From Buchnera aphidicola (Meitanaphis elongallis) (GTDB lineage Bacteria > Pseudomonadota > Gammaproteobacteria > Enterobacterales > Enterobacteriaceae): a DNA stretch of 64,000 nt. The first letter of the stretch is position 1; the number at the start of each line of letters is the position of its first letter. Of this stretch, positions 4,149 through 64,000 are shown in pieces. The notes under the pieces were generated by a model. That model did no database searches, was not told the origin of the DNA, and was given only the letters and a program-made list of their open reading frames with translations. The position numbers were made by a program, and so were the translations under genes. The stretch spans positions 105,233-169,232 of the forward strand of contig CP140033.1 in the NCBI GenBank assembly GCA_039830015.1, in the 5' to 3' direction.

Positions 4149-5561
4149 ATGAAAAAAAATCAAGTTGGTGTTGTAGGAATGGCAGTAATGGGTCGTAATT
4201 TAGCTTTAAATATAGCGCGTAATGAGTATTCTGTGTCAGTATTTAATCGATCATCTGAAGTTACTAATAAATTTTTTGCAGACAACGTTAACAAAAATAT
4301 ATTTCCTTATTTTTCGATTAAAGAGTTTGTTCTCTCTTTAAAAATTCCTAGATGTATTTTTTTAATGATTAGATCTGGAACAGCTATTGATACAATAATT
4401 ACATCAATAAAAAGATATTTAGATAAAGGAGATATTATTATTGATGGAGGTAACACTTTTTATAAAGATACTATGCGCCGAAATAATGAGTTATTCAAGG
4501 ATGGATTTAATTTGATAGGAGCGGGTATTTCAGGAGGAGAAGAAGGTGCATTGTATGGTCCTGCTATTATGCCTGGAGGTCAAAGAGAGGTTTATGATTT
4601 TATTGCTCCTATATTAAATAAAATTTCTGCTCAATTTGAAGGAAATCCATGTGTGAGTTATATTGGAACGGATGGTTCAGGACATTATGTAAAGATGGTT
4701 CATAATGGGATTGAATATAGTGATATGCAGCTAATAGCAGAATCTTATTTTTTAATGAAGAATTTATTACAAATGGATAATAAGGAATTGTCTGATGTAT
4801 TTTTTGAATGGAATCAAGGTGAATTAAATAGTTATTTAATGTCTATTACTGGAGATATTTTGATTAAAAAGGATGAAAATAATAATTATATTTTAGATTA
4901 TGTTTTAGATGAGGCTAGTAATAAAGGAACAGGAACATGGACTACTAAAAGTGCATTAGATCTTAATGAACCTTTGTCCTTAATAACTGAATCAGTGTTT
5001 TTTCGTTATTTATCTTCATTAAAGTCACAACGTGTGTTGGCATCAAAAGTGTTGTTTGGACCGAAGCGTTGTAGTAATGTGTCATTTAATAAATTTGATT
5101 TAACTGAAAAAATACGACAAGCGCTGTATTTAGGAAAAGTTATATCTTATGCTCAAGGATTTTCGCAATTAAATAGTGCTTCTAAGAAGTATAATTGGAA
5201 TTTACAATGTTCGGAAATAGCCAGAATATTTCAATCTGGATGTATTATTCGTGCGAAATTTTTGAAGTATATTAGTCAAGAATATTTAACGAATAAATAT
5301 GTTTCAAACTTATTGTTAACTTCTTATTTCAAAAACATTGCTAATGAGTATCAAAGTTCCTTGCGATATGTTGTATCTGCTGCTATTAAATGTGGGCTTC
5401 CTGTACCTGCATTATCTTCGGCAATCGCATATTTTGATTGTTATCGATCTTCTTTTCTTCCTGCAAATTTGATTCAGGCACAAAGAGATTATTTTGGAGC
5501 ACATATGTATAAAAGAATTAATGATTCTGGTTTGTTTCATACTAATTGGAAAAAAAATTAA
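4149..5561 (+). CDS. gnd: 6-phosphogluconate dehydrogenase (decarboxylating)
   Basis: I placed the start at ATG 4149, giving [22 protein letters not shown] (E. coli Gnd begins [22 protein letters not shown]). The ORF-track start at 4128 is an upstream TTG extension. Confidence 0.95.
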
Positions 5562-5939: not shown

Positions 5940-6521
5940 ATGAGATTGAGCGATAGAGATATTGAATTATGGTTGCGAAGAAAAAAATTGATTGTTATAC
6001 CTACCCCATGTAAAAAGTTAATTCATGGAGTAACTATTGATATTTGTTTGGGTAATGAATTTTATACTTTTTGTGATAATCAAAATAAATGTATTGATTT
6101 AAGTAAATCGAAAAGCGAAATATCACTAATGTTACGAGAGATTATGCATGAAAAAAAATTTGTGTCTCATGGTGAAAAGTTTTTTTTAAATCCTGGGTCA
6201 TTAGTGTTAGCAGTCACTTTTGAAAAAGTGATTCTACCAAATAATTTAGTAGGTTGGATAGATGGTCGTTCTTCTTTAGCACGACTTGGATTAATGATTC
6301 ATGCTACTTCACATCGTATAGATCCAGGCTGGAGTGGTAACATTGTTTTAGAGTGTTTTAATTCTAGCAATATCGTATTATCATTATGTCCGGGAATGTT
6401 AATAGCTGCTTTAAGTTTTGAAACATTATCTAGTCCATCTTTAAGACCATATAATATTAGAAAAAATGCTAAATATTTTGATCAAAATGGAGTGATATTG
6501 AGTAAAATATATAAAGATTAA
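5940..6521 (+). CDS. dcd: dCTP deaminase
   Basis: I placed the start at ATG 5940, giving MRLSDRDIELW (E. coli Dcd begins MRLCDRDIEAW) and a 193-aa product as in E. coli. GWIDGRSSLARLGLMIHATSHRIDPGWSG is conserved. Confidence 0.95.
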   Translation: MRLSDRDIELWLRRKKLIVIPTPCKKLIHGVTIDICLGNEFYTFCDNQNKCIDLSKSKSEISLMLREIMHEKKFVSHGEKFFLNPGSLVLAVTFEKVILPNNLVGWIDGRSSLARLGLMIHATSHRIDPGWSGNIVLECFNSSNIVLSLCPGMLIAALSFETLSSPSLRPYNIRKNAKYFDQNGVILSKIYKD

Positions 6522-6744: not shown

Positions 6745-8370
6745 ATGAACAAAAAAATTTTAGTTACTTGTGCTTTTCCATATGCTAATGGCCCAATTCA
6801 TATTGGACATATTTTAGAACATATTCAAGCTGATATTTGGGTTAGATATAATAAAATGAGGGGTAATAAAGTATGGTTTATTTGTGCAGATGATGCTCAT
6901 GGTACTCCGATTATGTTGAAATCTAAACAATTGGGGATTAATCCTGAGCAGTTAATAATTTCTATGCGAAATGAGCATATTAGAGATCTTTTAAGATTTA
7001 ATATAAATTATGATAATTATTATTCTACACATAGTACGGAGAATCTATTTTTTTTAAAAAAAATATATTATCGTTTAAAAATTAAAGGGTTAATTAAAAA
7101 AAAAATTATATCTCAATTTTTTGATTATCGATACAACATGTTTTTACCAGATCGATTTGTAAAAGGTTCATGTCCTATTTGTTCAGCACATAATCAATAT
7201 GGTGATCATTGTGAACAGTGTGGAAGGGCATATTCTGCTGTTGAATTAATTAATCCAAGGTCCGTTTTATCTGGAGTCGAGCCTGTATTAAAAGATTCAT
7301 TACACTTATTTTTTGATTTGCCTTATTTTAGTTCTATGTTAAGATCTTGGATTACTTCTGGAGTATTAGAACAGTCTGTAGTTAACAAGATTATGGAATG
7401 GTTTAAAACAGGTTTGAAAGACTGGGATATTTCAAGAGATGGGCCTTATTTTGGATTTAATATACCTGGTTTTTCAGATAAATATTTTTATGTTTGGTTG
7501 GATGCTCCTATTGGATATATTAGTACTTTTCAAAACTTATGCAATAAAACAAAAAATTTAATTTTTGATGAATTTTGGAAGATAGGAACAAATAGTGAAT
7601 TATATCATTTTATTGGAAAAGATATTATATATTTTCATAGTTTGTTTTGGCCAGCGATATTAGAAGGAAGTAATTTTAGAAAACCTACTAAAATTTTTGT
7701 TCATGGTCATGTAACTATTAATGGATGTAAACTTTCTAAATCTAGAGGATCTTCTATATCAGTAGATGATTGGCTCAAGAATTTAGATTCAGATAGCTTA
7801 AGGTACTATTACGCTACTAAAATTTCGTCTAATGTTAAAGATATTGAAATAAATAGAGATAGTTTTGTAAACACATTCAATTCTGATATTGTTAATAAGG
7901 TTATTAATTTAGCATCAAGAATTTCTTATTTTTTATCTGATCAATTTAATTGTCGTTTATCAAAAAGAATTGATGATCAATCTTTATATAACTTATTTGT
8001 TAGTAGTACTCAAAAGATAGAATTATTGTTAGAACAGAGTGAATTTAGTGCGGCTATTATTGTTATTATGGAATGTGCAGATATGGCTAATAAGTATATT
8101 GATAAAAAAAAACCATGGACAATGGTCAAAGATTGTTACAAACGTAGTAATCTTCATAATGTATGTACAATGGGAATAAATTGTTTTAGAATATTAATGA
8201 CTTGGCTGAAACCTATTATGCCTGATTTAGCCAAAAAAGTTGAGTTGTTTTTAAATATGAAATTAGTTTGGAATGAAATTTATATCCCTCTTTTAAATCA
8301 TGAAATTTCTGTTTTCAAACCATTAAATAAAAGAATTAAAAAGTCACAATTAAATTTTTTATTTATTTAA
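6745..8370 (+). CDS. metG: methionyl-tRNA synthetase, short form lacking the C-terminal appended domain
   Basis: 541 aa with the class-I HIGH motif (PIHIGHILE), the KMSKS variant KLSKSRG and the zinc-knuckle cysteines CPICSA...CEQCG. It ends about 135 aa short of the 677-aa E. coli enzyme. Confidence 0.95.
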   Translation: MNKKILVTCAFPYANGPIHIGHILEHIQADIWVRYNKMRGNKVWFICADDAHGTPIMLKSKQLGINPEQLIISMRNEHIRDLLRFNINYDNYYSTHSTENLFFLKKIYYRLKIKGLIKKKIISQFFDYRYNMFLPDRFVKGSCPICSAHNQYGDHCEQCGRAYSAVELINPRSVLSGVEPVLKDSLHLFFDLPYFSSMLRSWITSGVLEQSVVNKIMEWFKTGLKDWDISRDGPYFGFNIPGFSDKYFYVWLDAPIGYISTFQNLCNKTKNLIFDEFWKIGTNSELYHFIGKDIIYFHSLFWPAILEGSNFRKPTKIFVHGHVTINGCKLSKSRGSSISVDDWLKNLDSDSLRYYYATKISSNVKDIEINRDSFVNTFNSDIVNKVINLASRISYFLSDQFNCRLSKRIDDQSLYNLFVSSTQKIELLLEQSEFSAAIIVIMECADMANKYIDKKKPWTMVKDCYKRSNLHNVCTMGINCFRILMTWLKPIMPDLAKKVELFLNMKLVWNEIYIPLLNHEISVFKPLNKRIKKSQLNFLFI

Positions 8371-11624: not shown

Positions 11625-12230
11625 ATGTTTACCGGAATTGTTCGAGATGTTGCAAAAATAGTATGGATAAAAAAATATGAAAGTTTTTTTCAGTGGATTA
11701 TAGAGTTGTATAATATTGACACGAAAACCTTGTTACCTGGATCATCTATATCGTGTAATGGATGCTGTTTAACTGTTAAGTCTGTTGTAGATAGTAGTGT
11801 TAGTGTGGACATTATTCAAGAAACTTTACGGTGTACAAATTTAGGATATCTTAATAGAGGACATTACATTAATATTGAAAGGTCTGTAACATTTGGAGAA
11901 GAAATTGGAGGGCATTTAGTTTCTGGACATATTTTAATGACTGCAAAAATATGTAAAATTAAAATATGTAATCATAATTTTCAATTATGGATTGAGTTAG
12001 ATGATCTTTATTGTATGAAGTATATTTTTTGTAAAGGATTTATATGCATTGATGGTGTTAGTTTGACGGTTGGTATTGTTAAGAAAAACGTATTTTGCGT
12101 ATTTTTAGTTCCAGAAACGATATCTAATACTACTATGAAAGATAAAATTGTAGGTGACTTGGTTAATGTAGAAATAGATTATTTTACTAAGATTACTGTA
12201 GATAGTGTAGAACGATTATTAGGAATTTAA
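11625..12230 (+). CDS. ribE: riboflavin synthase (alpha chain)
   Basis: 201 aa with the canonical N-terminus MFTGIV and the internal repeat (GDLVNVE near the C-terminus). This gene is called ribC in E. coli K-12 nomenclature. Confidence 0.92.
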   Translation: MFTGIVRDVAKIVWIKKYESFFQWIIELYNIDTKTLLPGSSISCNGCCLTVKSVVDSSVSVDIIQETLRCTNLGYLNRGHYINIERSVTFGEEIGGHLVSGHILMTAKICKIKICNHNFQLWIELDDLYCMKYIFCKGFICIDGVSLTVGIVKKNVFCVFLVPETISNTTMKDKIVGDLVNVEIDYFTKITVDSVERLLGI

Positions 12231-12453
12231 TACGTACAATAGTAAATTAATGCATAGAATTTATTTAGGACATACAATTTTATCTTATTTTAAATTTTTT
12301 AGTTATATAAGTTATTTATATTGCAATACTGAAAATTTATAAAAAATAATATTTTTAGCTGCTAATAATTTAATCTTAAATAGATTTAGAATTGTTCATA
12401 TTTTGATTGCACAAACATTGTTGATAGTAACCAATTAATGTAAATAGTAGGGT

Positions 12454-13053
12454 ATGAGTATGTACGGTGGATTATTTTTCATTTGTTTTAAGTAATATAT
12501 TAGTACACAATTTAATTTTAGCACAATTTTGGGATTGTGTCTTTTTCATGGACTTCTTCAAAGTTTAGTTCTACAGTGAGTTTAAAGATGTACTACTTTT
12601 TTTTTGGTAATAACATGTGTTTTTTATTCTATCGTGGGTAGTTAATTCTTGTACATTAGTTTCGTTTAATTTGACGTGTCTTGGAGTTATGACGTATATG
12701 TTGATTGTTTCTGTGAGTGTACAGATCATTGAAATATTAATAAAAAAATTTTAGTCCTATCTTATATAGATTATTAGGTATATGTTTTCTTTTAATTACT
12801 AGTAATTGTTCAGTATTGGCTTATTCCTTTATTAAATGCGTATTCTGATTTTGATCTTTTAGGATCTTTTTTATATGAATGTTTTTCTTCTTTGGGATTT
12901 TTTAGTATTAGTTATCTTTTTTTAATAAGAGAACATTCACTTTTATCTGACGTTTCTGTTCCTTTTCGAGGTAGTTTTATTTTATTAATTACTGCTAGCT
13001 TAATATCTATATCTTTTGTGGGTTTTAATGATTTAGTAGGTATAAATATATGA
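12454..13053 (+). pseudogene. rnfA: rnfA (rsxA) relic, multiple in-frame stops and frameshifts
   Basis: It opens MSMYGGLFFICFK* (stop at codon 14). The relic ILGLCLFHG at about 12526-12552 matches RsxA FLGLCPFMG. The tail PFRGSFILLITASLISISFVGFNDLVGINI* at 12961-13053 matches [30 protein letters not shown]. The span of about 200 codons equals intact size. Confidence 0.85.
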
Positions 13054-13562
13054 TTTTTATTTTACGTTTTTTCTTTTTCTGGTGTTTTGAGTATTATTTT
13101 AGGGTTATTAATGAATTATGTAGTGTACAGATGTGATATAAGGATTTTAATCTTATTGTAGAATGGAATTGATGTACTATTACTATAAACGTAGTGTACG
13201 CAATGTCATTATCCTGGATGTTATGCTTTTATGCCGATGCAAGTAGTTAATAATAATGAAAGTATAGACAAAAGTGCATTCCTGGTGGTAATGAAGTTGT
13301 TTCAAAGATTGTAGATTTTTTAAGTAAGAGTGAACTAAAATGTAGTGTTTGAGTGTTTCTAAGGATGTATATTTTTAGATAGTAATTATTGATGAAGAGA
13401 ATTGTGTTGTTTGTTCAAAATGCAGATTGATTTTTTCTATCGATACTTGTAGTGGAATTGTATAATTTTATGTATATGGTTTGGTTGTTATCTAATATGC
13501 GTGCTGGTTGTGGTTTATGTATGCCTTTGTATCATCCTACTCACTGCATTGAAGAAAAATGA
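13050..13562 (+). pseudogene. rnfB: rnfB (rsxB) relic
   Basis: It has an ATGA overlap with the rnfA relic. *CTQCHYPGCYAFMPMQ at 13192-13242 matches RsxB QCGQCGYPGCRPYAEAI, with a TAG in place of the Gln codon. The tail RAGCGLCMPLYHPTHCIEEK* at 13500-13562 matches CTGCNLCVDPCPTHCISL with cluster cysteines lost. The frame changes between these blocks. Confidence 0.82.
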
Positions 13563-13645
13563 TATTATCTTGTAATTATGTTGAATAATTTTTTAAGTAA
13601 ATATTTATTTAGGTGTTTTAGTATTGTTTTGACTTGTTTGAGAGT

Positions 13646-15216
13646 ATGCTTTTTATATTAGAAAAATGATTTTATGAAAAAAAATCAAATAATTTTTATG
13701 GAGGAATAAGTTGTATATCTATGGAGAGAAATAAATTATCGTTTTAGTTGAATCGTGTATTCCTTTCAAAAATTTCACTATTTTAGTAGATGACATAATG
13801 TTTAAAAAAGAGATTTTAGTTAATATAGGACAAATAGTACTTGTGTGGTCAAGTTTTAGTATTTAGGCTATAAACATGTAGCTCCAATATATTCTTATAT
13901 CTAGATTAATTATAGAAATTTCATATAAGGAGTTTTAATTTTTTTTTAAATAAATGTTTTGGTGTTGTTAATATAAGATCTGACGGAAAGGATAAATAAA
14001 TTGGTTTCATTTCAATAGATAATTATAAATGTATGAGTTTTGATGAACTGTTCTAAATTATTTATAATATTGAAATAATTGGATTAGGAAGAGTTAGATT
14101 TTATCTTTTAAAAACTAAAATACTTTATTAAAAAGTATGTACTTTAGTAGTAAATGCTGCTGAAAGCGAATTGTATGTTGTTTCGAACGGTTGTTTAATA
14201 CAAAATTTCTCAAAAAATTATACAAGGATGTCAAATTGTTATGTGAATTTTAAAGATTAAATATGTTTTAATTACTATGGAGGAGGATAAAATTTAGTAT
14301 ATGTTATAACAAAAAACAAGAATTAAGATTTTTGATAGGTTTTGAAATATGTAAAATAAAGACAAAGTATTCATTTGGAGGTAGTGGGCAGTTACAGTTA
14401 ATAAAGACATTATTTTAATAAAGAAATTTTTTTGGAAAAAGTTTAATAGGCTTAGGAATAGTTATATTTAATATTTCTACTATTTTTTTAATTAAAAAGT
14501 GATATTGAATAATGAATTTTTAACTGAAAGGATTATAATCCTTATCAGATAGACATTTATTATATCAAAAAATGTTTTAATTTGAATTGGAATTCCTATT
14601 CGTCAATGTGTTAACTAAATTTGGAATTAACATTGAGAATAATAGAATTATTATGGGAAGACCGATATTTGGATTAATAATTGATAATACTAGTTTTTCA
14701 GTTCTAAAAGCTACTAATAGTATTTTATGTTTTTTAGCACTTAGGCGTAACTATAAGTAACTAATTAGAATGTCTTTGCATTTGTTCTACTGTTTGTTCC
14801 ACAAGTAATGTCCTTATGCGTTTGTTTCCAGAATAAATTGTATTTTATAGTCGATCTTGTAATCATAATCAGTTTTAACCATCATATTGCATGAATGAAT
14901 GTATTGAATATGGAGTTTGTGAATAAGTGTGTCTAGTAATATTTCTCTTTTAACTTATTTTAAACGAGAGAAGACACGATTAAATGAAATAAAGTGCAAG
15001 AAAAATAGATCTAAAAATTTAAAAATCGTTTTATCTCATCAATTTAGATTGTGTTCTTCAGGATTAGTAAAAAACGTTTTATATTTTAATCATATCTTAA
15101 ATGAAGAGCTTGATAAATATGTTACTCGTAGTAATATTTTAAAATATACAATGATAGAGAAATGTACTTATATGTGGAAAATGGAATTTGAAGTTTCAAT
15201 TTTAGAGTTGAATTAA
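13646..15216 (+). pseudogene. rnfC: rnfC (rsxC) relic
   Basis: MLFILEK*FYEKKSNNFYGGI from 13646 matches RsxC [41 protein letters not shown] at about 14147-14203 matches IINAAECEPYITADDRLMQ. Both ferredoxin-type Cys motifs are degraded at 14777-14835 and 14900-14935. The 95-aa track ORF 14929..15216 is only the C-terminal tail (SSNISLLTYFKREK, compare PSNIPLVQYFRQEK). Confidence 0.88.
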
Positions 15217-15287
15217 AAAGAAACATTGAATAACTTATTAATATATAACAATATTGTTTGTATATTATATAAATTAATTTTTAATAT

Positions 15288-16340
15288 ATGATTATGGATT
15301 ATCGATATACAAAAGTTAGTGACATCTATGTTTGTAGAAATACTAACAATATAATGTTATTAGTAACATCAGTTATGATAATCAGGTATAATAATAGAAT
15401 GTTATTATTTTACGATAGCAGTGTTAATTCAAATACTATTTTCTAGTATTTTATCGATAATATTTGAGGGGTGTATTTTAAAGTTATGTAAAAAATTTAT
15501 ATATGTGAATTTGATTTTTCTTTGATATTTAGTTGGAATTTTATTAGGACTTAGTTTATCTGCTTTTCTATCGTAGTGGATATCAATCTCAGGTTCATTT
15601 TTTTATTGCAGTAATTAAATAGCTATATGGAAGATTAGAATGTAATATATTTTAATCCTGTTATGTCAGGACATGCAATAACATTATTAACATCATTCCC
15701 TTTTTTAATAGTTAGTTGGCCTTTTCAAAACAGTTTGGTATTGTTCGATGTATTAGATATAAAAGATATTATTTCAGTTGTTTTTAATAGTTTAGAGAAT
15801 TATCATGAATAATGTCAAAATTTGGCGATACATCTGTATTTATGATTCAAGTCACTCCTTTAGAATAAATTAAAATATAAAATAGAAATTGTTTAATAGA
15901 AATGTTATTGTTTTTACTTTTTCTTTAGATAATATAATTATTTGTTTTTATTGGATATTAATTAATTTTAGTTTTTTGATAGAAGGAATTTTTTTTATTA
16001 ATGAAGAAAATTGTTTGTTGGAGATTTTTATCTAGTATTTTGCTATCTTTTATTTCTTTCTGTTTCTTAGATTTTTTTATCTTAAACAAACTGATATTTT
16101 TCCATTAATTTAATTATTTCTAGGTAAGTACTATATTAGGAATTTTTTGTTGCTACTGGGTTTTATTACGATTTCAGTTACTAAAATTGGACGTATAATA
16201 TTTGGAGTTTTTATTGGGGTTTTAGTTTGGATTATGCGAACTTTGGAGATTATCTTGATATTATATCATTTTCTATGTTATTTTCTAGTTCTTTTGCCCT
16301 GTTAATAGATTATTATACTAAGTTTAGCATTTATTGGTAA
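15288..16340 (+). pseudogene. rnfD: rnfD (rsxD) relic
   Basis: LVGILLGLSLSAFLS*W at about 15529-15579 matches RsxD LLTGLLLAVSIPPLAPWW. FNPVMSGHAITLLTSFPFLIVSWPF at 15651-15725, in another frame, matches [24 protein letters not shown]. The tail FALLIDYYTKFSIYW* ends at 16340 (compare VPLIDYYTRPRVYG). The span of 351 codons compares with 352 in E. coli. Confidence 0.88.
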
Positions 16341-16344
16341 AATA

Positions 16345-16965
16345 GAAGAATAATCATTTTAAAAAAGAACAATTTGATTACTATATTTTGTTTGTTGTTA
16401 TTGTTACAGAAAGTAGTGTAGTTTCAGTTTACGTATTTACTAAATTTAAAATAATTTCACAAGAAGAAAGTTATCAACAAAAAATTTTAAATGCGATTAT
16501 TTCTGAGAAGTCTTTTAATAATACAAAAATTTTACGTTTTTGTGAGTAATAAATTATTAGGAGATGAGAAAAATCATCGATTTTGGATGATTAAAAAAAT
16601 AATAAATTAAAAGTAATGATTTTTGAAGTAATAGCATCAGATGGATATTTAGGAAATATAAGAGTGATTATTATTTTTAAACAACTAAGAACATAATTTT
16701 AGGTATTTGTATATTAGATCATAACGAAACCCCTGGATCAGGAGATAAAATTGATGTTTGTATTTTAAATCGGATTATTAAATTTTCAGGTATGATGTAG
16801 TTTTGAGATTGAATGATAATAAGTTTTCTTTGAAAAAACATGGAGGTAATATTGATTAATTTACTGGTAACTATTATTACTTCATTAGCAGTAATTAATT
16901 TAATTAAATGTGCTATTAGTTTGGCATTAAGATTTGACATTGAAAGAAGAAACAAGGCTTAAAAT
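16345..16965 (+). pseudogene. rnfG: rnfG (rsxG) relic
   Basis: EVIASDGYLGNIRVIIIF at about 16624-16677 matches RsxG EATAPDGYSGAIQLLVG. HNETPGSGDKIDVCILNRIIKFSG at 16720 onward matches [24 protein letters not shown] and is followed by stops. The boundaries are approximate. Confidence 0.8.
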
Positions 16966-16979
16966 TTTTAATACTGATT

Positions 16980-17680
16980 ATGAATCATTTTATTAAAATT
17001 TTAAATTATGGAATATGGACTAAGAATTTTATTATTAGTATAGTTATTAGGTTTGCTTCCTTATTTTGCCAGTTATAATAAATGTGGTTAATACTTTAGA
17101 ATTAGAGGTATCAAAACATGTATTTTAGTATGTACTAATATAATATCAGTATGTAGATTTTGGATATCGAAAATATTTTTTATGTTCCTATTTATATAAT
17201 GATTATTAGTATGCTGTAGTTAATTACTTCGATTCTTTAGTTCATGTATATTTGTTAAATTTGCGTCGATCTTTAGGTATTTTGTTCTTTTGATTATTAT
17301 TACTTTTGTTATATGTAGTTGATCTGATTTTATGGTTATGTACAGAGTTTCATATTGGTTTCGTTTTTAGATAGATTTTTTAGGATTGGGATCTATTTTA
17401 GTAATTTTTTAGTTGGATTGATTAGAAAAATATTTAGAAATGGAATACTATTTTTTTTAGTTCTGAAAATTTATTTGGGTCTTGGTCTTGTATTTTGTAT
17501 ACAAGAATAATAAGTGTAAAGTATGTTGTATTATTTTTATATCCATTTAGTGCTTTTGTGATTTTAGGGTTTATTTTAGCTGAAATAAATTTTATAAATA
17601 ATAAAATTAGTGTGAGTGATTGTAATTTATGCAAGAACACATGTTTTTTACGTCAAGGAGAAAACAAAAAGATTGAGTGA
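16980..17680 (+). pseudogene. rnfE: rnfE (rsxE) relic
   Basis: MNHFIKILNYGIWTKNFIISIVIRFASLFCQL** from 16980 matches RsxE [32 protein letters not shown]. The tail LYPFSAFVILGFILAEINFINNKI, within track ORF 17495..17680, matches [27 protein letters not shown]. There are many stops in between. Confidence 0.82.
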
Positions 17681-18305
17681 AGATAGATTAAATAAAATTT
17701 TATCAATTTTTTCTAAAGATAATCCTAAACCAAAAATAGAATTAAAATTTTCTTCAAATTTTGAATTGTTGATATCAGTAATATTATCAGCACGATCTAC
17801 TGATCGTATGGTAAATGAAGTTACTAAAAGTTTGTATAGCGTTGCTAATACACCATCTTCTATTTTATTACTTGGTGTTAAGAATTTAAAAAAATATATA
17901 AAAAAATTAGGTTTGTTTAATAAAAAGTCTTCTAATATTATTAAAACTTGTACTATTTTATTACATAAGTATAAAGGAGAAATACCTAACAACATGTTGG
18001 ATTTACAATCTCTACCTGGAGTAGGAAGAAAAACTGCTAATATAGTTTTAAACTGTATTTTTAAAGAAAAAACTATTGCAGTAGATACTCATGTATTTAG
18101 ACTATGTAATAGAATAGGACTTATAAAAGAAAATACAGTTTTCAATACAGAAAAAAAATTACTTAAAATAGTTCCTGAACAGTTTAAATTGAATTTTCAT
18201 AATTGGTTTGTTTTACATGGTCGTTATATATGTATGTCTAGATTTCCTAAGTGTTTTATATGCTCAATTAATCATTTATGCGGATTTAAATACAAGCGTA
18301 TGTAA
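17673..18305 (+). CDS. nth: endonuclease III (DNA glycosylase/AP lyase)
   Basis: The helix-hairpin-helix LPGVGRKTANIVLN and the 4Fe-4S ligands CMSRFPKCFICSINHLC (C-x6-C-x2-C-x5-C) are intact. There is no in-frame ATG. TTG at 17673, preceded by AAGGAG at 17655-17660, gives 210 aa (E. coli has 211). GTG at 17616, the track start, is the alternative. Confidence 0.9.
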   Translation: MSEDRLNKILSIFSKDNPKPKIELKFSSNFELLISVILSARSTDRMVNEVTKSLYSVANTPSSILLLGVKNLKKYIKKLGLFNKKSSNIIKTCTILLHKYKGEIPNNMLDLQSLPGVGRKTANIVLNCIFKEKTIAVDTHVFRLCNRIGLIKENTVFNTEKKLLKIVPEQFKLNFHNWFVLHGRYICMSRFPKCFICSINHLCGFKYKRM

Positions 18306-47815: not shown

Positions 47816-48769
47816 TTATTTGTTTTTTCTAATACACTTCAGTTCTTTTGGAATGCGAAATATAATATTTTCACTAATTCCAGTAATTTCTTGTATAGTA
47901 GTGTTTTTGATTGTGCTTAGCTTTTTGATTATTTGTTTTATTATAATGTTTGGAGTGGAAGCTCCAGCTGTTATTCCAATAGACCGAGAATTTTTAATAA
48001 TCCAATCGTTTGTATGAATTTCATTTTTAGAGTCTATTAAAATAGAATGTTTTCCTGTTTTTTTCGCTAATTGGACTAATTGATTAGAATTAGAAGAATA
48101 TCTTGAACCTATTACAATAATAGTGTCAGATATCTTTGATAATTTTTTAACTGCTATTTGACGATTAATGGTTGCATAGCAAACATCTGTTTTTTTTGAA
48201 TTAATAATATTAGGATATTTTTTTTTCAGTGCTGTAATAATAGGATTAATTTTTTCTAAAGATAGTGTAGTTTGAGTCATTAGCATTAATTTATTTGAAT
48301 TTTTAACTTTTAATTTTGACACATCTTTAACTGATTCTATAAGATAAATTTTTCCATGAATGTTATCATATTGCCCTAGTGTTCCTTCGATTTCTGGATG
48401 TTTAGCTGTTCCTATAAGTACAGCTTCAAAGCCTAATTTGCTAGCTTTTGATACTTTTTTATGAACTTTTTCGACTAGTGGACAGGTTGCATCAATTATT
48501 TTTAATTTTCTTTTTATAGCTTTATTTTTTAGATTTTTAGATACTCCATGTGCTGAAAGAATTAGTATTGATCCTTTTGGAATAGAATTAATATGTTCAT
48601 TAAAAATAACACCTCTAGATTTTAAATCATTGATGACGTATGTATTATGTACTATTTCGTGATTGACGTAAATAGGTTTTCCCCAGACTTTTAATGCAGT
48701 ATTAACAATATTGATTGCTCTTTTTACTCCTGCACAAAATCCTCTTGGATTTGCTAAAAAAATATTCAT
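47816..48769 (-). CDS. ispH: 4-hydroxy-3-methylbut-2-enyl diphosphate reductase
   Basis: I placed the start at ATG 48769, giving MNIFLANPRGFCAGVKRAI (E. coli IspH begins MQILLANPRGFCAGVDRAI) and 317 aa. Confidence 0.95.
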   Translation of the reverse strand: MNIFLANPRGFCAGVKRAINIVNTALKVWGKPIYVNHEIVHNTYVINDLKSRGVIFNEHINSIPKGSILILSAHGVSKNLKNKAIKRKLKIIDATCPLVEKVHKKVSKASKLGFEAVLIGTAKHPEIEGTLGQYDNIHGKIYLIESVKDVSKLKVKNSNKLMLMTQTTLSLEKINPIITALKKKYPNIINSKKTDVCYATINRQIAVKKLSKISDTIIVIGSRYSSNSNQLVQLAKKTGKHSILIDSKNEIHTNDWIIKNSRSIGITAGASTPNIIIKQIIKKLSTIKNTTIQEITGISENIIFRIPKELKCIRKNK

Positions 48770-48860
48770 ATGTATGTACAAAATTTTAAGTAAATATTGT
48801 TATTTAATTATTTTATATTTATGTAAAATATATTATGTAAGTGTTAGTATATGTTTTATT

Positions 48861-49346
48861 TCATTTGTTCTTGTAAAGGTGAATGTATATTAGTAGGATG
48901 CTGCCTAAAAAAATACTTATGTCCGCTATATTAAATATAGCAAAATGCCAATTTTTAAAGTGAATATCAATAAAATCTATTACGAAACCAAAACGTAATC
49001 GATCTATTAAGTTCCCGATTGCTCCGCCAATTATTAAAATATAAATGAAATTGTAATATGTTTTATTGCTTGAAATAAAACACATAATCTTCGATATTAT
49101 AATAATAGTTATAAAATTTATAAAATATAAGATATATTTATGTTCTTTGCTAACATTGGAAAAAAGGCTAAATGCTAATCCATAGTTGTGTGTATGAACA
49201 ATGTTTAATGTTGAAGTAATATGTGTAACTTCAAATAATGGAAAATTATTACTTATCCATCTTTTACTTAAAAAATCTAATAGTGTTATTAGAAAAATAC
49301 TATTTAATAAAATTAGTATGTTTAATGGGGTTAGTGATTTTTTCAT
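48861..49346 (-). CDS. lspA: lipoprotein signal peptidase (signal peptidase II)
   Basis: 161 aa, membrane protein. It has the motif [10 protein letters not shown], followed by VIDFIDIH and FNIADISI. The start overlaps the ileS stop as TAATG. Confidence 0.92.
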
Positions 49347-57099: not shown

Positions 57100-57495
57100 A
57101 TGCATCATGTTATAAATGCATTTCATTGTCCTCAACAATGGGCTTTTTTCATATTTTTTTTGGTGGCTTTTTTTATATGTTTGTCTATATTATCATTGAG
57201 CACAGTATTAGGTGGAAAATCGCAATCTAGACATAAACATACGCCGTTTGAATCAGGAATAGATCCTGTTGATAGTGTTTTTCATTTAAATATGTTTATT
57301 AAGTTTTATTTAATTGCAATATATTTTGTATTATTTGATGTTGAAGCGTTGTATTTATATCTTTGGTCGATAAGTATTATTGAATCAGGTTGGATAGGTT
57401 TTATAGAAGTTATGTTTTTTGTTTTTTTTCTTTTATCTGGATTAGTTTATTTAATTCGCTTAAATTCATTAAATTGGAAATCAGAATATTTTTAG
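57100..57495 (+). CDS. nuoA: NADH-quinone oxidoreductase subunit A
   Basis: 131 aa. PFESGIDPV, FDVEALYLYLWS and GLVYLIRL match E. coli NuoA. It is the first gene of the nuo cluster. Confidence 0.93.
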   Translation: MHHVINAFHCPQQWAFFIFFLVAFFICLSILSLSTVLGGKSQSRHKHTPFESGIDPVDSVFHLNMFIKFYLIAIYFVLFDVEALYLYLWSISIIESGWIGFIEVMFFVFFLLSGLVYLIRLNSLNWKSEYF

Positions 57496-57534
57496 GAATA
57501 TTAATATTAAAGCTATTTTGAGGTAATTCATTTT

Positions 57535-58209
57535 ATGAAGTATACATTAACTAGAGTAGATGTTTCAAAAAAAAATAAAGATTATCCTCTTCAGAAGAAA
57601 GAGATTGTGTCTGATCCTCTCAAAAATTATATTCATAAAAATGTTTATATGGGAACAATTAGTAAATGCATTCATAATTTAGTAAATTGGGGCAGAAAAA
57701 ATTCTTTATGGCCCTATAATTTTGGTTTGTCATGCTGTTATGTAGAAATGGTTACTTCGTTTACGTCTATAAATGACGTTTCAAGATTTGGTTCTGAAGT
57801 ATTACGTGCATCTCCTAGACAGGCTGATTTTATGGTTATAGCGGGAACACCATTTATTAAAATGGTTCCAGTTATTCAACGTTTATACGATCAAATGTTA
57901 GAACCAAAATGGGTTATTTCTATGGGTTCCTGTGCTAATTCAGGGGGGATGTATGACGTTTACTCTGTTGTTCAAGGTGTAGATAAATTCCTACCTGTAG
58001 ATGTGTATATTCCTGGTTGTCCTCCTAGACCAGAAGCGTATATAGAAGGATTAATGTTATTACAGAAGTCTATATCTGAAGAGCGTCGTCCATTGTCTTG
58101 GGTGATAGGAGAGCAAGGAGTTTATCGTGCTAATATGCCTTCAGAAAGGAGTCGTCGTAGAAAGAGATATATTTCTATTAAACACCTTCGTTCTCCAGAT
58201 CAAATTTAG
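57535..58209 (+). CDS. nuoB: NADH-quinone oxidoreductase subunit B
   Basis: 224 aa. It has the N2 cluster cysteine motifs [17 protein letters not shown] and IPGCPPRPE. Confidence 0.96.
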
Positions 58210-58313
58210 GGTGTATTATGTTTAAGCTATGTTTTCAAAAATTTTATTATCGTAAATAGTTTATTGTATTGTATTTTTATTAATTTCACACTACGAAAAT
58301 TATTATGTAATTT

Positions 58314-60116
58314 ATGAAAGTAACTATTTCAACTAAGAATGATAATGCGATGAAGCATATTTCTGATGATCATATTAATAGTGATATTGTAGTAGAATTA
58401 TTTGAGTATTTTGGAAGAGACAAGTTTGTTCTTCAGTCTACTTTAATGGGAATTCCTACATTATGGATCGACAGTGATATGTTATTGAAAATTGGTAAAT
58501 TTTTATTAAGTATATATAATCCATATAACATGTTATTTGACCTTCATGGTGTAGATGAAAGATTTCGTACTAATCGTTGTCAATTACCGTTAGCTGACTT
58601 TTCAGTATTTTATCATTTTGTTTCTTTTTCTAGAAATAATGATGTAATATTTAAAATTGCGTTATTTAGTAACAAATTGAATGTAACTACATTAACTGGA
58701 TTATACCCAAACGCTAATTGGTATGAGCGAGAAACATGGGAAATGTTTGGAATAGTTTTTGATGATCATCCGCATTTAACTCGCATTATTATGCCAAAAA
58801 CTTGGAAAGGTCATCCATTACGAAAAGATTATTCTTCTAGGGCAACTGAATTTGATTTTTTTACTTTAAATCAATATAAAGAAGATGCAGAAATGGATGC
58901 ATTAAAATTTAAACCAGAAGAATGGGGAATGAAAAAGCAAGGAAAACATAGTCATTATATGTTTTTAAATTTAGGTCCGAATCATCCTTCTTCACATGGA
59001 GCTTTTCGTATTGTTTTACAGTTAGATGGAGAAAAAATAGTAGATTGTGTTCCAGATATTGGATACCACCATCGTGGTGCAGAAAAAATAGGAGAACGTC
59101 AAACTTGGCATAGTTATATTCCGTATACTGATCGAATTGAATATCTTGGCGGATGTGTTAATGAAATGCCTTACATTTTAGCAGTAGAAAAATTGGCAGG
59201 TATTGTGGTTCCAAAAAAAGTAGAAGTAATTCGCATTATGTTATCAGAATTGTTTAGGATTAATAGCCATTTATTGTATATTTCTACTTTTATTCAAGAT
59301 GTAGGGGCTATGACACCCATATTTTTAGCTTTTACTGATCGTCAAAGAATTTACGATATTATTGAAGCAATTACTGGTTTTCGTATGCATCCAGCGTGGT
59401 TTAGGATTGGAGGGATAGCACATGATTTACCAAAAGGGTGGAATAGGTTATTAGAAAAATTTCTTATATGGATGCCAAATAGATTAACTAAATACATTAA
59501 TACTTCGTTAAAAAACAGTATTTTAATTAGTCGGTCGAAGGGTATAGCAGGATATAATAAGTGTGAAGCATTAAAATGGGGTATTACAGGATCTGGATTA
59601 CGTGCTACTGGTTTAGATTTTGACGTTCGAAAGAAACGACCTTATTCAGGGTATCATAACTTTGAATTTGAGATACCTATAGGAGATGGTCTTAGTGATT
59701 GTTATTCTCGAGTAATGTTGAAAGTAGAAGAGATTTGGCAAAGTCTTCATATTTTAAAACAATGTTTAAATAATATGCCAGAGGGTCCTTTTAAGGCAGA
59801 TCATCCGTTAACTACTCCTCCACTTAAAGAACATATGTTTCAGCACATCGAAACTATGATTACTCATTTTTTACAAGTATCTTGGGGTCCAGTAATACCT
59901 CATAATGAGAGTTTTCAAATGATTGAAGCAACTAAAGGTATTAACAGTTACTATTTAATTAGTGATGGAAGTACTACAAGTTATAGAACTAGAATAAGAA
60001 CGCCTAGTTTTCCTCATTTACAGCAAATACCGTCAGTTATTCGTGGGAGTTTAATATCAGATTTAATAGTTTATTTAGGTAGTATTGATTTTGTTATGTC
60101 TGATGTTGATCGTTAA
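58314..60116 (+). CDS. nuoC: NADH-quinone oxidoreductase fused subunit C/D
   Basis: 600 aa, a fused NuoCD as in E. coli. [14 protein letters not shown] is in the C part, [23 protein letters not shown] is in the D part, and the protein ends [12 protein letters not shown]. Confidence 0.97.
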
Positions 60117-60123
60117 AGTGAAT

Positions 60124-60618
60124 ATGTTAAAAGAAAAATTTCACAACATTTTTATGTTAAGTAATGAAGAAAAAAAAGCAATATTAAAAGAAAAAAATAA
60201 TTATGAAGATTCTCGTGCAAGTTCTATAGAAGCTTTAAAAATAGTACAAAAAAATAGAGGTTGGGTTTCTAAACAAGCTATTTATGCAATTTCTAAAATA
60301 CTTGAAATGTCCGCCAGTGATTTAGAAGAAGTTGCAACGTTTTATAGTCAAATTTTTAGACGACCAGTAGGACGAAATGTGATACGTTATTGCGATAGTG
60401 TAGTATGTTATATGCATGGTTGTGAAAACATTAGGGCTTGTTTAGAGAATAAGTTAAATATTGTTATTGGAGAAACTACAAGGGATTTTCGTTTTACCTT
60501 ATTACCGATATGTTGTTTAGGAAATTGTGATAAAGCTCCTACTTTAATGATTAATGACAATATTTATTCGCGTTTGACTTTAAAAACAGTAGTTGAATTA
60601 TTGGAATTATATCAGTGA
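60124..60618 (+). CDS. nuoE: NADH-quinone oxidoreductase subunit E
   Basis: I placed the start at ATG 60124 (MLKEKF, 164 aa). [15 protein letters not shown], the 2Fe-2S cysteines YCDSVVC and [10 protein letters not shown] are present. The track start at 60085 overlaps the nuoCD tail. Confidence 0.95.
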
Positions 60619-61991
60619 AAAAGATATTGTTAACTTCAGAAACTCATCCATTAACTTGGTGGTTAAATGATAATAAAGGTGTAATATGGATCGAAGAATA
60701 TAAAAAAAAGGGAGGTTATCTTGCTTTTAAAAAAGCAATTGAGACTATTGAACCTAGTAAAATTATAGACATTATAAAATGCTCTGGATTGAAAGGACGT
60801 GGTGGAGCAGGTTTTTCTACAGGAGTGAAGTGGAGCTTAATGTCTCAAAATAATAGTAGTTCTATGCGCTATTTGTTATGTAATGCTGATGAAATGGAGC
60901 CAGGAACGTATAAAGATAAATTTTTAATAGAACGAATTCCTCATCAATTATTAGAAGGAATTTTAATTAGTTCATTAGCTCTAAGAGTTAGAAAAAGTTA
61001 TATCTTTTTAAGATATGAATATGTTAATGCTGAGCGTATTTTAATTAGAGCTATTAATGAAGCAAAAAAACATGGATATATAGGAAACAATGTTTTGCGA
61101 TCTGGTCTAGATTTTGAGATCATTTTACATAGTGGTGCCGGTCGTTATATTTGCGGGGAAGAAACTGCTTTAATTAATTCTTTAGAAGGCAAACGAGCTA
61201 ATCCAAGATTTAAGCCTCCTTTCCCTGCTTTGGTTGGAGTTTGGGGGAAACCTACTTGTGTAAATAACGTAGAGACATTATCTAACGTGCCTTCAATTAT
61301 TTTGCATGGAGTAGAATGGTATAAGAGTTTGTCAAAGAGTGTTGATTCTGGTACTAAAATTATGGGGTTTTCAGGAAAAGTTAAAAATCCTGGATTATGG
61401 GAGTTGCCTTTTGGAACTACAGCACGCGAGATATTGGAAGATTATGCTGGTGGTATGCATGATGGATTAACATTGAAAGCATGGCAGCCAGGTGGAGCGA
61501 GTACAGATTTTTTAACATCTGAACATATTGATGTGCCTATGGATTTTTTTAGTGTGCAGAATGCAGGTAGTCGGTTAGGAACAGCACTTGCTATGGCAAT
61601 AGATAATAACGCAAATATGGTGTCTTTGGTTAGAAATATAGAAGAATTTTTTTCTCGCGAATCATGTGGCTGGTGTACTCCATGTCGTGATGGTTTACCC
61701 TGGATTGTATCTATTTTAAGATCTTTAGAAAGAAAGCAAGGAAGAAAACATGATATTGAAACTTTAGAACAATTATGTCATCAATTAGGTCCTGGAAAAA
61801 CATTTTGTGCACATGCACCTGGAGCTGTTGCGCCATTAAAAAGTGCTATTAAATATTTTCGTATGGAATTTGAATGTGGTGTTGAATTATCATCTGTTAT
61901 TGATGTTAAATTAATAGAGAATGTTTCATCTTATAATGAGATTTTAGATAAAGTTGAGTATGATAATAAATTTAAAAGTAAATATGATTAA
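60615..61991 (+). CDS. nuoF: NADH-quinone oxidoreductase subunit F
   Basis: 458 aa with a GTG start in a GTGA overlap with the nuoE stop. It has the FMN/NADH motifs [13 protein letters not shown] and [19 protein letters not shown], and the N3 cluster motif [12 protein letters not shown]. Confidence 0.96.
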
Positions 61992-62056
61992 ATGTGATAT
62001 ATGTAAATGCTACATTACTTTATAAATATTCTACTAAATGGAAATAAAAATTATTT

Positions 62057-64000
62057 ATGGCTATAATTTTTATAGATAATAACAAATATGATGTTGACAA
62101 TTCGAATAATTTATTACAAGTGTGTTTGTCTCTTGGTTTTGATATACCGTATTTCTGTTGGCATCCAACATTAGGAAGCATTGGTGCTTGTCGTCAGTGT
62201 GTTGTAAAACAATATCATAGTTTTGAAGATAAGGTGGGTAAATTAGTAGTATCTTGTATGACGCCTATTATGAACGGATTAATAGTTTCTATTAATGAAA
62301 GTGAAGCAGTAAATTTTAGGAAAGGAGTTATTGAATTATTAATGACTAATCATCCACATGATTGTCCTGTTTGTGAGGAAGGTGGAAGCTGTCATTTACA
62401 GGATATGACTGTTATGACTAAACATCATGTTCGTCGTTATAGATTTTTGAAAAGAACTCATAAAAATCAATATTTAGGTTCATTTATTAGACATGAGATG
62501 AATCGATGTATTTCTTGTTATAGATGTGTGCGTTATTATAAAGATTATGCTGATGGTACAGATTTTGGAGTTTATGGAATTAGCAATAACATTTATTTTG
62601 GACGTTTAGAAGATGGGCCATTGAATAGTGAATTTTCTGGGAATTTAATAGATATTTGTCCTACTGGAGTTTTTACTGATAAAGTGCAATCGGAAACATA
62701 TGTTAGGAAATGGGATTTACAATATGCACCGAGTATTTGTCAGCATTGTTGCGTAGGATGCAATATTAGTGTAGGAGAAAAATATGGAGAAATATGTAAA
62801 GTAGAAAATCGATATCATGGTAGTATTAATCGTTATTTTTTATGTGATTTAGGTAGATTTAGTTATGGCTATTCTAATTTAGAAGATAGACCTAAACGTT
62901 CTACTTATCGATGTAAAGGTACAAAACATATTTTAAATAGCGTAGAAAATTCTATTGAGTTAGTAGTAAAACGTTTAACTACTGCATCTAAAATAATAGG
63001 AATTGGTTCTAGTCGTGCTAGTTTAGAAAATAACTATGCACTTCAAAAACTAGTTGGAATAGAGAATTTCTCTGTTGGAATGTTACAAAAAGAATTAGAC
63101 TGCACAAAATTAATTATAAAAATTTTAAAAAATAGTGGTATTTATACTCCTACATTACGAGAAATTGAAGATTATGACACTATTCTTGTTTTAGGTGAAG
63201 ATATTACTAATACTTCTCCTATGATAGCTTTATCTATTCGTCAAGCAATAAAAGGGAAATCTAGAAAGGTAGCACTATCTAATAATATTCCAAAATGGCA
63301 TGCATTAGCTACTAAGAATATTTCTCAAAATATAAAAAACAAATTGTTTATTATTAATACTTATAAAACTAAATTAGATGATATCTCTGAAAATAGTTAT
63401 GTATTGACAATTGATGATCAGGTACAATTAGGTTGTGCAATTGCTGATTATATTGATAAGGGTTCTTTTCATGTAAACAATTTAAGCGAAAATTTGATTA
63501 CAATAATGAAAAAAATTGTTTTTTCGTTGCTTTCTTCCAAAAAACCTTTAATTGTTTCAGGTGTTCATTCTAATAGTATTGAATTAATTCAAATTGCACA
63601 TAATATAGCAAGATCTTTAAAAAATGTAGAAAAAAAAGTTGGATTGGTTTTGTTAGTATCTAATTTTAATAGTTTGGGTGTTGGTTTATTGAGTGGAATG
63701 TCACTAGAAAAAGTAGTAAATAATGTTTCGAATAAACAATGTGATTCTTTAATAATTTTAGAAAATGATTTGCATCGTTATTTTTCAAACATTTGTATTG
63801 AAAAATTATTTAGAAATGTTAAAAATGTTATAGTAATGGATCATATTAATACTAATACTATGAAAAAGGGAACAATAGTTTTTCCATCAACTAATATTTT
63901 TGAAAGTTCTGGTACTGTTGTAAATTATGAAGGTCGAGCACAACGTTTTTTCCAGGTGTACGATCCAAAATTTTATGATGGTGATTCGCATGTTTTAGAT
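62057..64000 (+). CDS. nuoG: NADH-quinone oxidoreductase subunit G, 5' part (continues past window end; absent from ORF track)
   Basis: ATG at 62057 opens a frame with no stop through 64000 (648 codons). [53 protein letters not shown] matches E. coli NuoG [71 protein letters not shown] is conserved. Confidence 0.95.
   Translation, partial: [648 protein letters not shown]

Follow-up and report, generated by a model that had tools for sequence, protein, structure and literature searches.

Relics of a complete rnfABCDGE operon between ribE and nth in the Buchnera symbiont of Meitanaphis elongallis

The window, a stretch of 64,000 nucleotides (nt) from the chromosome of Buchnera aphidicola of the Rhus-gall aphid Meitanaphis elongallis (CP140033.1, forward strand, positions 105,233 to 169,232), contains a block of about 5.4 kilobases (kb) between the intact genes ribE and nth in which relics of the six-gene operon rnfABCDGE are found (Table 1). 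The products of this operon, named Rsx in Escherichia coli, form a membrane ferredoxin/flavodoxin:NAD+ (nicotinamide adenine dinucleotide) oxidoreductase complex. The longest open reading frame (ORF) on either strand of positions 12231-17615 comprises 95 amino acids (aa; 14929-15216, + strand), and the longest on the minus strand 78 aa. Elsewhere in the window, ORFs of 100 aa or more are never more than about 0.6 kb apart, which bears out a preliminary description of the stretch in which a gap with no ORF above 95 aa had been singled out. A comparison of base composition had also been proposed there, and the overall guanine plus cytosine (GC) content of 12231-17672, 0.234, is above that of true spacers (0.186) and below that of the window's genes.

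The corresponding interval is occupied by six rnf ORFs in the Buchnera of seven other Melaphidina, namely those of Schlechtendalia peitan, S. chinensis, Floraphis choui, Melaphis rhois, Meitanaphis flavogallis, Kaburagia rhusicola ensigallis and Nurudea shiraii. In E. coli nth directly follows rsxE, and in these sister genomes it abuts or overlaps rnfE. A tblastn search with E. coli RsxA, B, C, D, G and E (from NC_000913) returned colinear chains on the + strand in the order A-B-C-D-G-E for all six genes (E-values: A 3e-21, B 5e-8, C 2e-10, D 2e-11, G 1e-6, E 5e-5). The Rnf proteins of the sister Buchnera gave stronger matches (A 7e-33, B 2e-21, C 5e-72, D 1.5e-43, G 2e-23, E 5e-24), which in combination cover nearly all residues. 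All 12 peptides quoted in the preliminary description as remnants of the six proteins occur in forward frames inside the region.

Table 1. Coordinates of the features in the window, with lesions counted against sister proteins and family matches of the frameshift-corrected translations
Feature	Position	Strand	Frameshifts	In-frame stops	Pfam match	NCBIfam match (E-value)	Remarks
ribE (riboflavin synthase alpha)	11625..12230	+					Intact upstream flank; 201-aa ORF; product identical to XBC42391.1
ribE-rnfA spacer	12231..12463	+					GC 0.193 (true spacers 0.186); promoter-like matches at chance frequency
rnfA pseudogene	12464..13053 (alignment 12464-13044)	+	6	0	Rnf-Nqr, 84 bits (cut-off 23.8)	RsxA (2e-45)	Matches F. 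choui RnfA residues 2-193, E = 7e-33
rnfB pseudogene	13057..13585	+	8	3	FeS, 36.6 bits	rnfB (3e-32)	
rnfC pseudogene	13569..15249	+	21-22	10-11	Complex1_51K, 59 bits	RsxC (3e-75)	
rnfD pseudogene	15294..16350	+	9-13	5-6	NQR2_RnfD_RnfE, 154 bits	RsxD (2e-62)	351-352 codons
rnfG pseudogene	16356..16984	+	7-8	1-2	FMN_bind, 38 bits	RsxG (3e-41)	
rnfE pseudogene	16980..17680 (alignment 16980-17677)	+	8-10	2-3	Rnf-Nqr, 67 bits	RsxE (4e-38)	Tail overlaps nth start as in sisters
nth (endonuclease III)	17673..18305	+					Intact downstream flank; TTG start; 210-aa product identical to XBC42395.1
ispH/lytB	47816-48781	-					
lspA	48861-49346	-					

A custom-written, frameshift-tolerant protein-to-DNA aligner based on dynamic programming, run with four sister references per gene, recovered all six relics in canonical order and at full length, as the preliminary description had proposed. 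The lesion count that it had called for, taken over all six relics with the M. flavogallis proteins as reference, came to 66 frameshifts and 22 in-frame stops. The relics retain 51-66% amino-acid identity to the sister proteins, and Rnf identity between the sister genera, used as a control, is 59-80%. In intact sister DNA the only frameshifts were a few artefacts at the ends of genes, and the highest score of shuffled DNA was 46, whereas the real sequence scored 313-1025.

When the frames are corrected, all six translations exceed the Pfam gathering thresholds, and the best NCBIfam model is in each case that of the matching Rsx/Rnf subunit, aligned over nearly the full profile. The Pfam families Fer4 and RnfC_N, which are detected in the sisters, are no longer found in the corrected relics. 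Both ferredoxin cysteine (Cys) motifs of rnfB are broken (CPVDAI, for example, has become FSID), both CxxCxxCxxxCP motifs of rnfC are damaged, and in rnfG a frameshift falls inside the segment corresponding to FTGATIT of M. flavogallis RnfG, presumably the motif for attachment of flavin mononucleotide (FMN). The last in-frame piece of rnfE, 17495-17680, is terminated by a stop codon. The locus has kept six homologues on one strand in the order A-B-C-D-G-E and its place after ribE and upstream of nth. It has lost the open full-length frames, and neither the Cys clusters of RnfB and RnfC nor the FMN motif of RnfG is intact. Judging from these lesions, the electron-transfer and ion-translocating activity of Rnf would be excluded.

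The nearest other genome is that of the Buchnera of Meitanaphis microgallis (CP140042.1), which is 98.2% identical across 16.6 kb. This independent assembly carries the same fossil operon, with 16 of the 22 stops identical and no nearby length difference at 58 of the 66 frameshift sites. Comparison of the locus among relatives, another proposal of the preliminary description, has revealed an intact operon in seven Melaphidina and a shared fossil in M. microgallis. Between the two Meitanaphis symbionts, mismatches amount to 2.71% in the fossil (147/5,424), about 1.5% in true spacers and about 0.85% in intact genes. Insertion or deletion (indel) events number 21 in the fossil, 4 in true spacers and 0 in 9,056 nt of intact genes; ribE and nth differ at 1.16% and 0.47% of positions, respectively, with no indels in either.

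The rate and pattern of these differences are those of neutral evolution. Nei-Gojobori estimates on nine flanking genes gave a synonymous divergence (dS) of 0.027 and a nonsynonymous divergence (dN) of 0.0037 (dN/dS = 0.14), and the corrected divergence of the fossil, 0.0276, is equal to the dS of these genes. Distributed over ancestral codon positions 1:2:3, the differences number 50:52:31 in the fossil and 21:6:47 in the genes, and no codon-position periodicity was found in the fossil. Nor was there a conserved island within it: the differences are evenly spread, and the longest identical run of 172 nt compares with a simulated mean of 174. The locus therefore combines lesions relative to intact relatives, divergence at the synonymous rate, tolerated indels and an absence of conserved sub-blocks, the features by which a neutrally evolving bacterial pseudogene is recognized.

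The mode of decay can be followed in the lesions themselves. From the start of rnfA to the end of rnfE the fossil measures 5,202 nt and the sister operons 5,126-5,193 nt, so there has been no net shrinkage; despite the presence of in-frame indels as well, the length is 100-101% of that of an intact operon. The 66 frameshifts relative to the sisters consist of 23 of -1 nt, 30 of +1 nt and 13 that are +2 nt or ambiguous. The earlier suggestion that inactivation came about through many small indels and stops, not through deletion, is upheld by these figures (1-2 nt for the indels). Its estimate of relic length was accurate for rnfD and slightly too high for rnfA, which spans about 194 codons, not about 200. 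The contrast that it drew with a clean excision of fkpB elsewhere in the window also stands, as only a 79-nt spacer (48782-48860) remains between lspA and ispH, the two genes between which fkpB is situated in E. coli.

Homopolymer changes of +/-1 nt (2 nt in one case) make up 15 of the 21 indels by which the two Meitanaphis copies of the fossil differ, and none of the 21 exceeds 5 nt. Ten lengthen the window sequence (18 nt in total) and 11 lengthen that of M. microgallis (19 nt in total). Transitions account for 121 of the 147 substitutions (C/T 71, A/G 50, G/T 15, A/C 9, A/T 1, C/G 1), and each of the six stops found in the window but not in M. microgallis came from a C>T or G>A change. The GC content at ancestral codon positions 1/2/3 is 0.279/0.282/0.156 in the fossil and about 0.31/0.317/0.14 in the sister rnf genes; the composition of the fossil has moved only part-way toward the spacer value. 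Third positions, already saturated with A and T, change less than first and second positions.

The region is best explained as a non-functional, neutrally drifting fossil of rnfABCDGE at the ancestral site between ribE and nth, with a probability of roughly 0.95. No evidence contradicting this explanation was found. Three points of method nevertheless weigh against taking all of its details at face value. Frameshift counts shift with the alignment penalties, as seen in rnfD, where the number varies with the reference protein. The corrected translations were picked for their likeness to Rnf, which makes the family scores somewhat circular, even though shuffled controls come out near zero. Finally, the clocks that are used below to date the inactivation differ by about threefold.

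The alternative that survives best, though it is improbable, is that some segment of the fossil has been preserved or co-opted for a new function, whether as a promoter or leader of nth in the rnfE relic, as a small RNA or as a small protein. A new role would help to account for the block not having been deleted, and the position of nth in the sisters and in E. coli indicates that it probably relied on rnf transcription. A run of 123 nt identical in both Meitanaphis genomes lies just upstream of nth (17528-17652) and includes a 9-of-12 promoter-like match at 17580-17607. However, a longer identical stretch would be expected by chance alone, promoter-like sites show no excess in the fossil (53 against 49.9 +/- 6.5 expected), and no Rfam family is matched in it at E <= 1. 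The longest ORF of the relics is moreover broken by further indels in M. microgallis, and in the Buchnera of Tetraneura sorini, as detailed below, nth persists where the rnf DNA is entirely gone. Three specific candidates were rejected: a hidden RNA gene, on the Rfam result; a conserved regulatory island, as the spacing of differences fits a uniform model; and the 95-aa ORF as a real gene, since it is the C-terminal part of the rnfC relic and carries indels in M. microgallis.

It is extremely unlikely that the lesions are errors of sequencing or assembly in an operon that is really intact. The +/-1 homopolymer differences that predominate between the two Meitanaphis assemblies are of a class that error can produce, yet the two assemblies are independent, come from different hosts and have most frameshift sites and stops in common, and not one indel occurs across 9 kb of flanking genes; an artefact is ruled out on these grounds. 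Many of the lesions are, in addition, substitutions that make stops or remove Cys ligands, and constraint has gone from first and second codon positions. Equally negligible is the proposal that the genes still make protein through transcriptional slippage at poly(A/T) tracts, a rescue of homopolymer frameshifts that is documented in Buchnera (according to work cited in PMC3164680) and of which the single frameshift in an otherwise intact Schlechtendalia rnfC, described below, could be a case: a slippage-rescued gene has one frameshift, in a long A/T run, in a constrained ORF, whereas the relics have 6-22 frameshifts each, some of them outside long homopolymers, together with in-frame stops in five of the six, lost cofactor ligands and divergence at the neutral rate without codon periodicity.

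For the fossil operon a history can be proposed. Selection on Rnf would have been relaxed in the lineage ancestral to the symbionts of M. elongallis and M. microgallis, after the lineage of M. flavogallis and Kaburagia had split off. Slippage in A/T runs would then have introduced indels, mostly of +/-1 nt, into the six genes, and GC-to-AT substitutions would have created the stops. Small insertions would have offset small deletions and no large deletion would have occurred so far, leaving a block of original length from which nothing can be translated. Still under purifying selection, nth would be transcribed by read-through or from a promoter inside the rnfE relic.

The host phylogeny places M. 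elongallis as sister to M. flavogallis plus Kaburagia (PMC6395032). In combination with the intact operons of the sister genomes, this assigns the loss of rnf to the branch of M. elongallis and M. microgallis, and the lesions common to both Meitanaphis symbionts show that inactivation preceded their split. Of 2,169 first and second codon positions at which the sisters do not vary, 16.5% are different in the fossil, compared with 3.2% for the equivalent positions of flanking genes, and the two Meitanaphis genomes differ from each other by 3.0% at these sites. The distance at first and second positions is about 0.25 from fossil to sister and about 0.164 between the sister genera. With the time of the M. 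elongallis / M. microgallis split as the unit, a clock based on stop codons gives about 4 split-times, one based on indels about 7, and one based on substitutions 7-12; in the flanking genes, the split from the other genera falls at about 27-30 split-times. Inactivation took place roughly 4-12 split-times ago, or about an eighth to a third of the time that has passed since the M. flavogallis and Kaburagia lineage diverged. The preliminary description had argued for a relatively recent loss. This is correct when set against the long history of Buchnera, but the lesions shared with M. microgallis and the 16.5% change at invariant positions place the event before the split of these two symbionts. 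In absolute terms the age is probably of the order of millions of years, going by published substitution rates for Buchnera. Such an age is compatible with the mean half-life of about 24 million years reported for Buchnera pseudogenes, whose full disintegration is put at 40-60 million years (Gomez-Valero et al. 2004, in the form cited in PMC7067036 and PMC4866557).

Loss of Rnf is not confined to this lineage. Among the major deletions of Buchnera-Ua, from Uroleucon ambrosiae, is rnfABCDGE (PMC3164680), and rnf is absent from Buchnera-Cc, from Cinara cedri (PMC3246468). In the Buchnera of T. sorini (CP188087.1; 9819-9979 of locus L002) ribE and nth lie only 161 nt apart, tblastn detects no remnant of rnf, and this is an independent and complete deletion of the operon. 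The present case adds a further independent loss. In the sisters, evolution of the rnf genes outpaces that of the flanking genes by a factor of about 1.4. Rnf in Buchnera is thus under weak constraint, and its loss has recurred. The additional loss reinforces the dispensability of Rnf in the aphid symbiosis, with at least the nuoA-G part of complex I kept. Here the preliminary description had regarded the nuo cluster of the window as intact. This holds for nuoA-F and the first 647 codons of nuoG (57100-64000); nuoH-N lie beyond the window end, and as the window ends within nuoG, the whole complex I cluster cannot be called intact from it.

Two irregularities occur among the otherwise intact operons. 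In both Schlechtendalia symbionts rnfC is split into ORFs of 64/79 aa and 466/460 aa by one frameshift, which lies in an A10 tract and affects the same codon position in both (about 4205-4217 of locus L011 in S. peitan and 4148-4157 of L016 in S. chinensis), the gene being otherwise intact. It represents either the start of rnf erosion or a slippage-rescued gene. The RnfE of F. choui (7306-7941 of locus L012) has 211 aa, compared with 229-237 aa in other Melaphidina symbionts; alignment with the M. flavogallis protein beyond the stop requires frameshifts, and the C-terminus appears truncated.

The proteins Nth, TyrS and RibE of the window are all those of Buchnera aphidicola (Meitanaphis elongallis), TyrS being an exact match to XBC42396.1, and E. 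coli Nth has one tblastn match in the window (E = 1.5e-71). The spacer between ribE and rnfA, which is 133-611 nt long in the sister genomes, would be the one-time promoter region of rnf. At the other end, the mechanically called nth ORF opens at GTG 17616, whereas the identical deposited protein opens at TTG 17673; the upstream extension 17616-17672 is the tail of the rnfE relic in another frame. The numbering of the M. elongallis proteins from XBC42391 to XBC42395 implies that three coding sequences (CDSs) were called inside the fossil. The public annotation of M. microgallis includes CDSs of 68 aa and 46 aa within it (5996-6202 and 7186-7326 of locus L010), which by position appear to be relic pieces of rnfD and rnfG. 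The CDSs annotated inside the fossil are probably spurious gene calls.

The chromosome of the M. elongallis symbiont is given as 625,615 base pairs in the genome paper (PMC11188193). In its main text, neither "rnf" nor "pseudogene" occurs, and its gene-loss table is arranged by subfamily. The fossil is a new instance of a documented process, as rnf loss and the slow decay of pseudogenes were already known in Buchnera. It represents ordinary reductive evolution at an informative stage, with no new mechanism or type of element. With 5.2 kb of neutral DNA, seven intact orthologues and a second copy about 2.7% diverged, it serves as an internal standard for the neutral spectrum and can be used to calibrate both the indel bias of such a tiny genome and the pace at which its pseudogenes decay. 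It is possible, though rather doubtful, that small indels in the Meitanaphis Buchnera lineage are free of deletional bias. If this were true genome-wide, Buchnera would lose DNA only through rare large deletions, and dead operons would be long-lived neutral yardsticks for mutation spectrum and timing. In a weaker variant, the block may have been retained since nth needs transcription through it.

The fossil has the same gene order as E. coli RsxABCDGE and the same place directly upstream of nth. Unlike E. coli Rsx, the complex cannot be made here, as six of the six genes are frameshifted and five of the six have in-frame stops. Buchnera-Ua, Buchnera-Cc and the Buchnera of T. sorini resemble the present case in that the same operon proved independently dispensable. 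In those three the DNA is gone, whereas here the whole 5.2 kb can still be read, so that a stage of decay can be studied. Buchnera genes with a single frameshift in a poly(A) tract share the +/-1 lesion in an A/T run, which is also the main indel class here. Such genes, among which the Schlechtendalia rnfC fits, have one lesion and remain constrained; the relics have many each and evolve neutrally. The known spacer pseudogenes of Buchnera likewise show homopolymer indels, AT-biased substitutions and slow removal (Degnan, Ochman & Moran 2011, PMC3164680). Published Buchnera genomes contain only 4-17 pseudogenes each, mostly of single genes (PMC3164680, Table 1). Unlike these, the fossil of the M. 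elongallis symbiont is a contiguous block of six genes that makes up about 0.8% of the genome and has undergone no net change in length.

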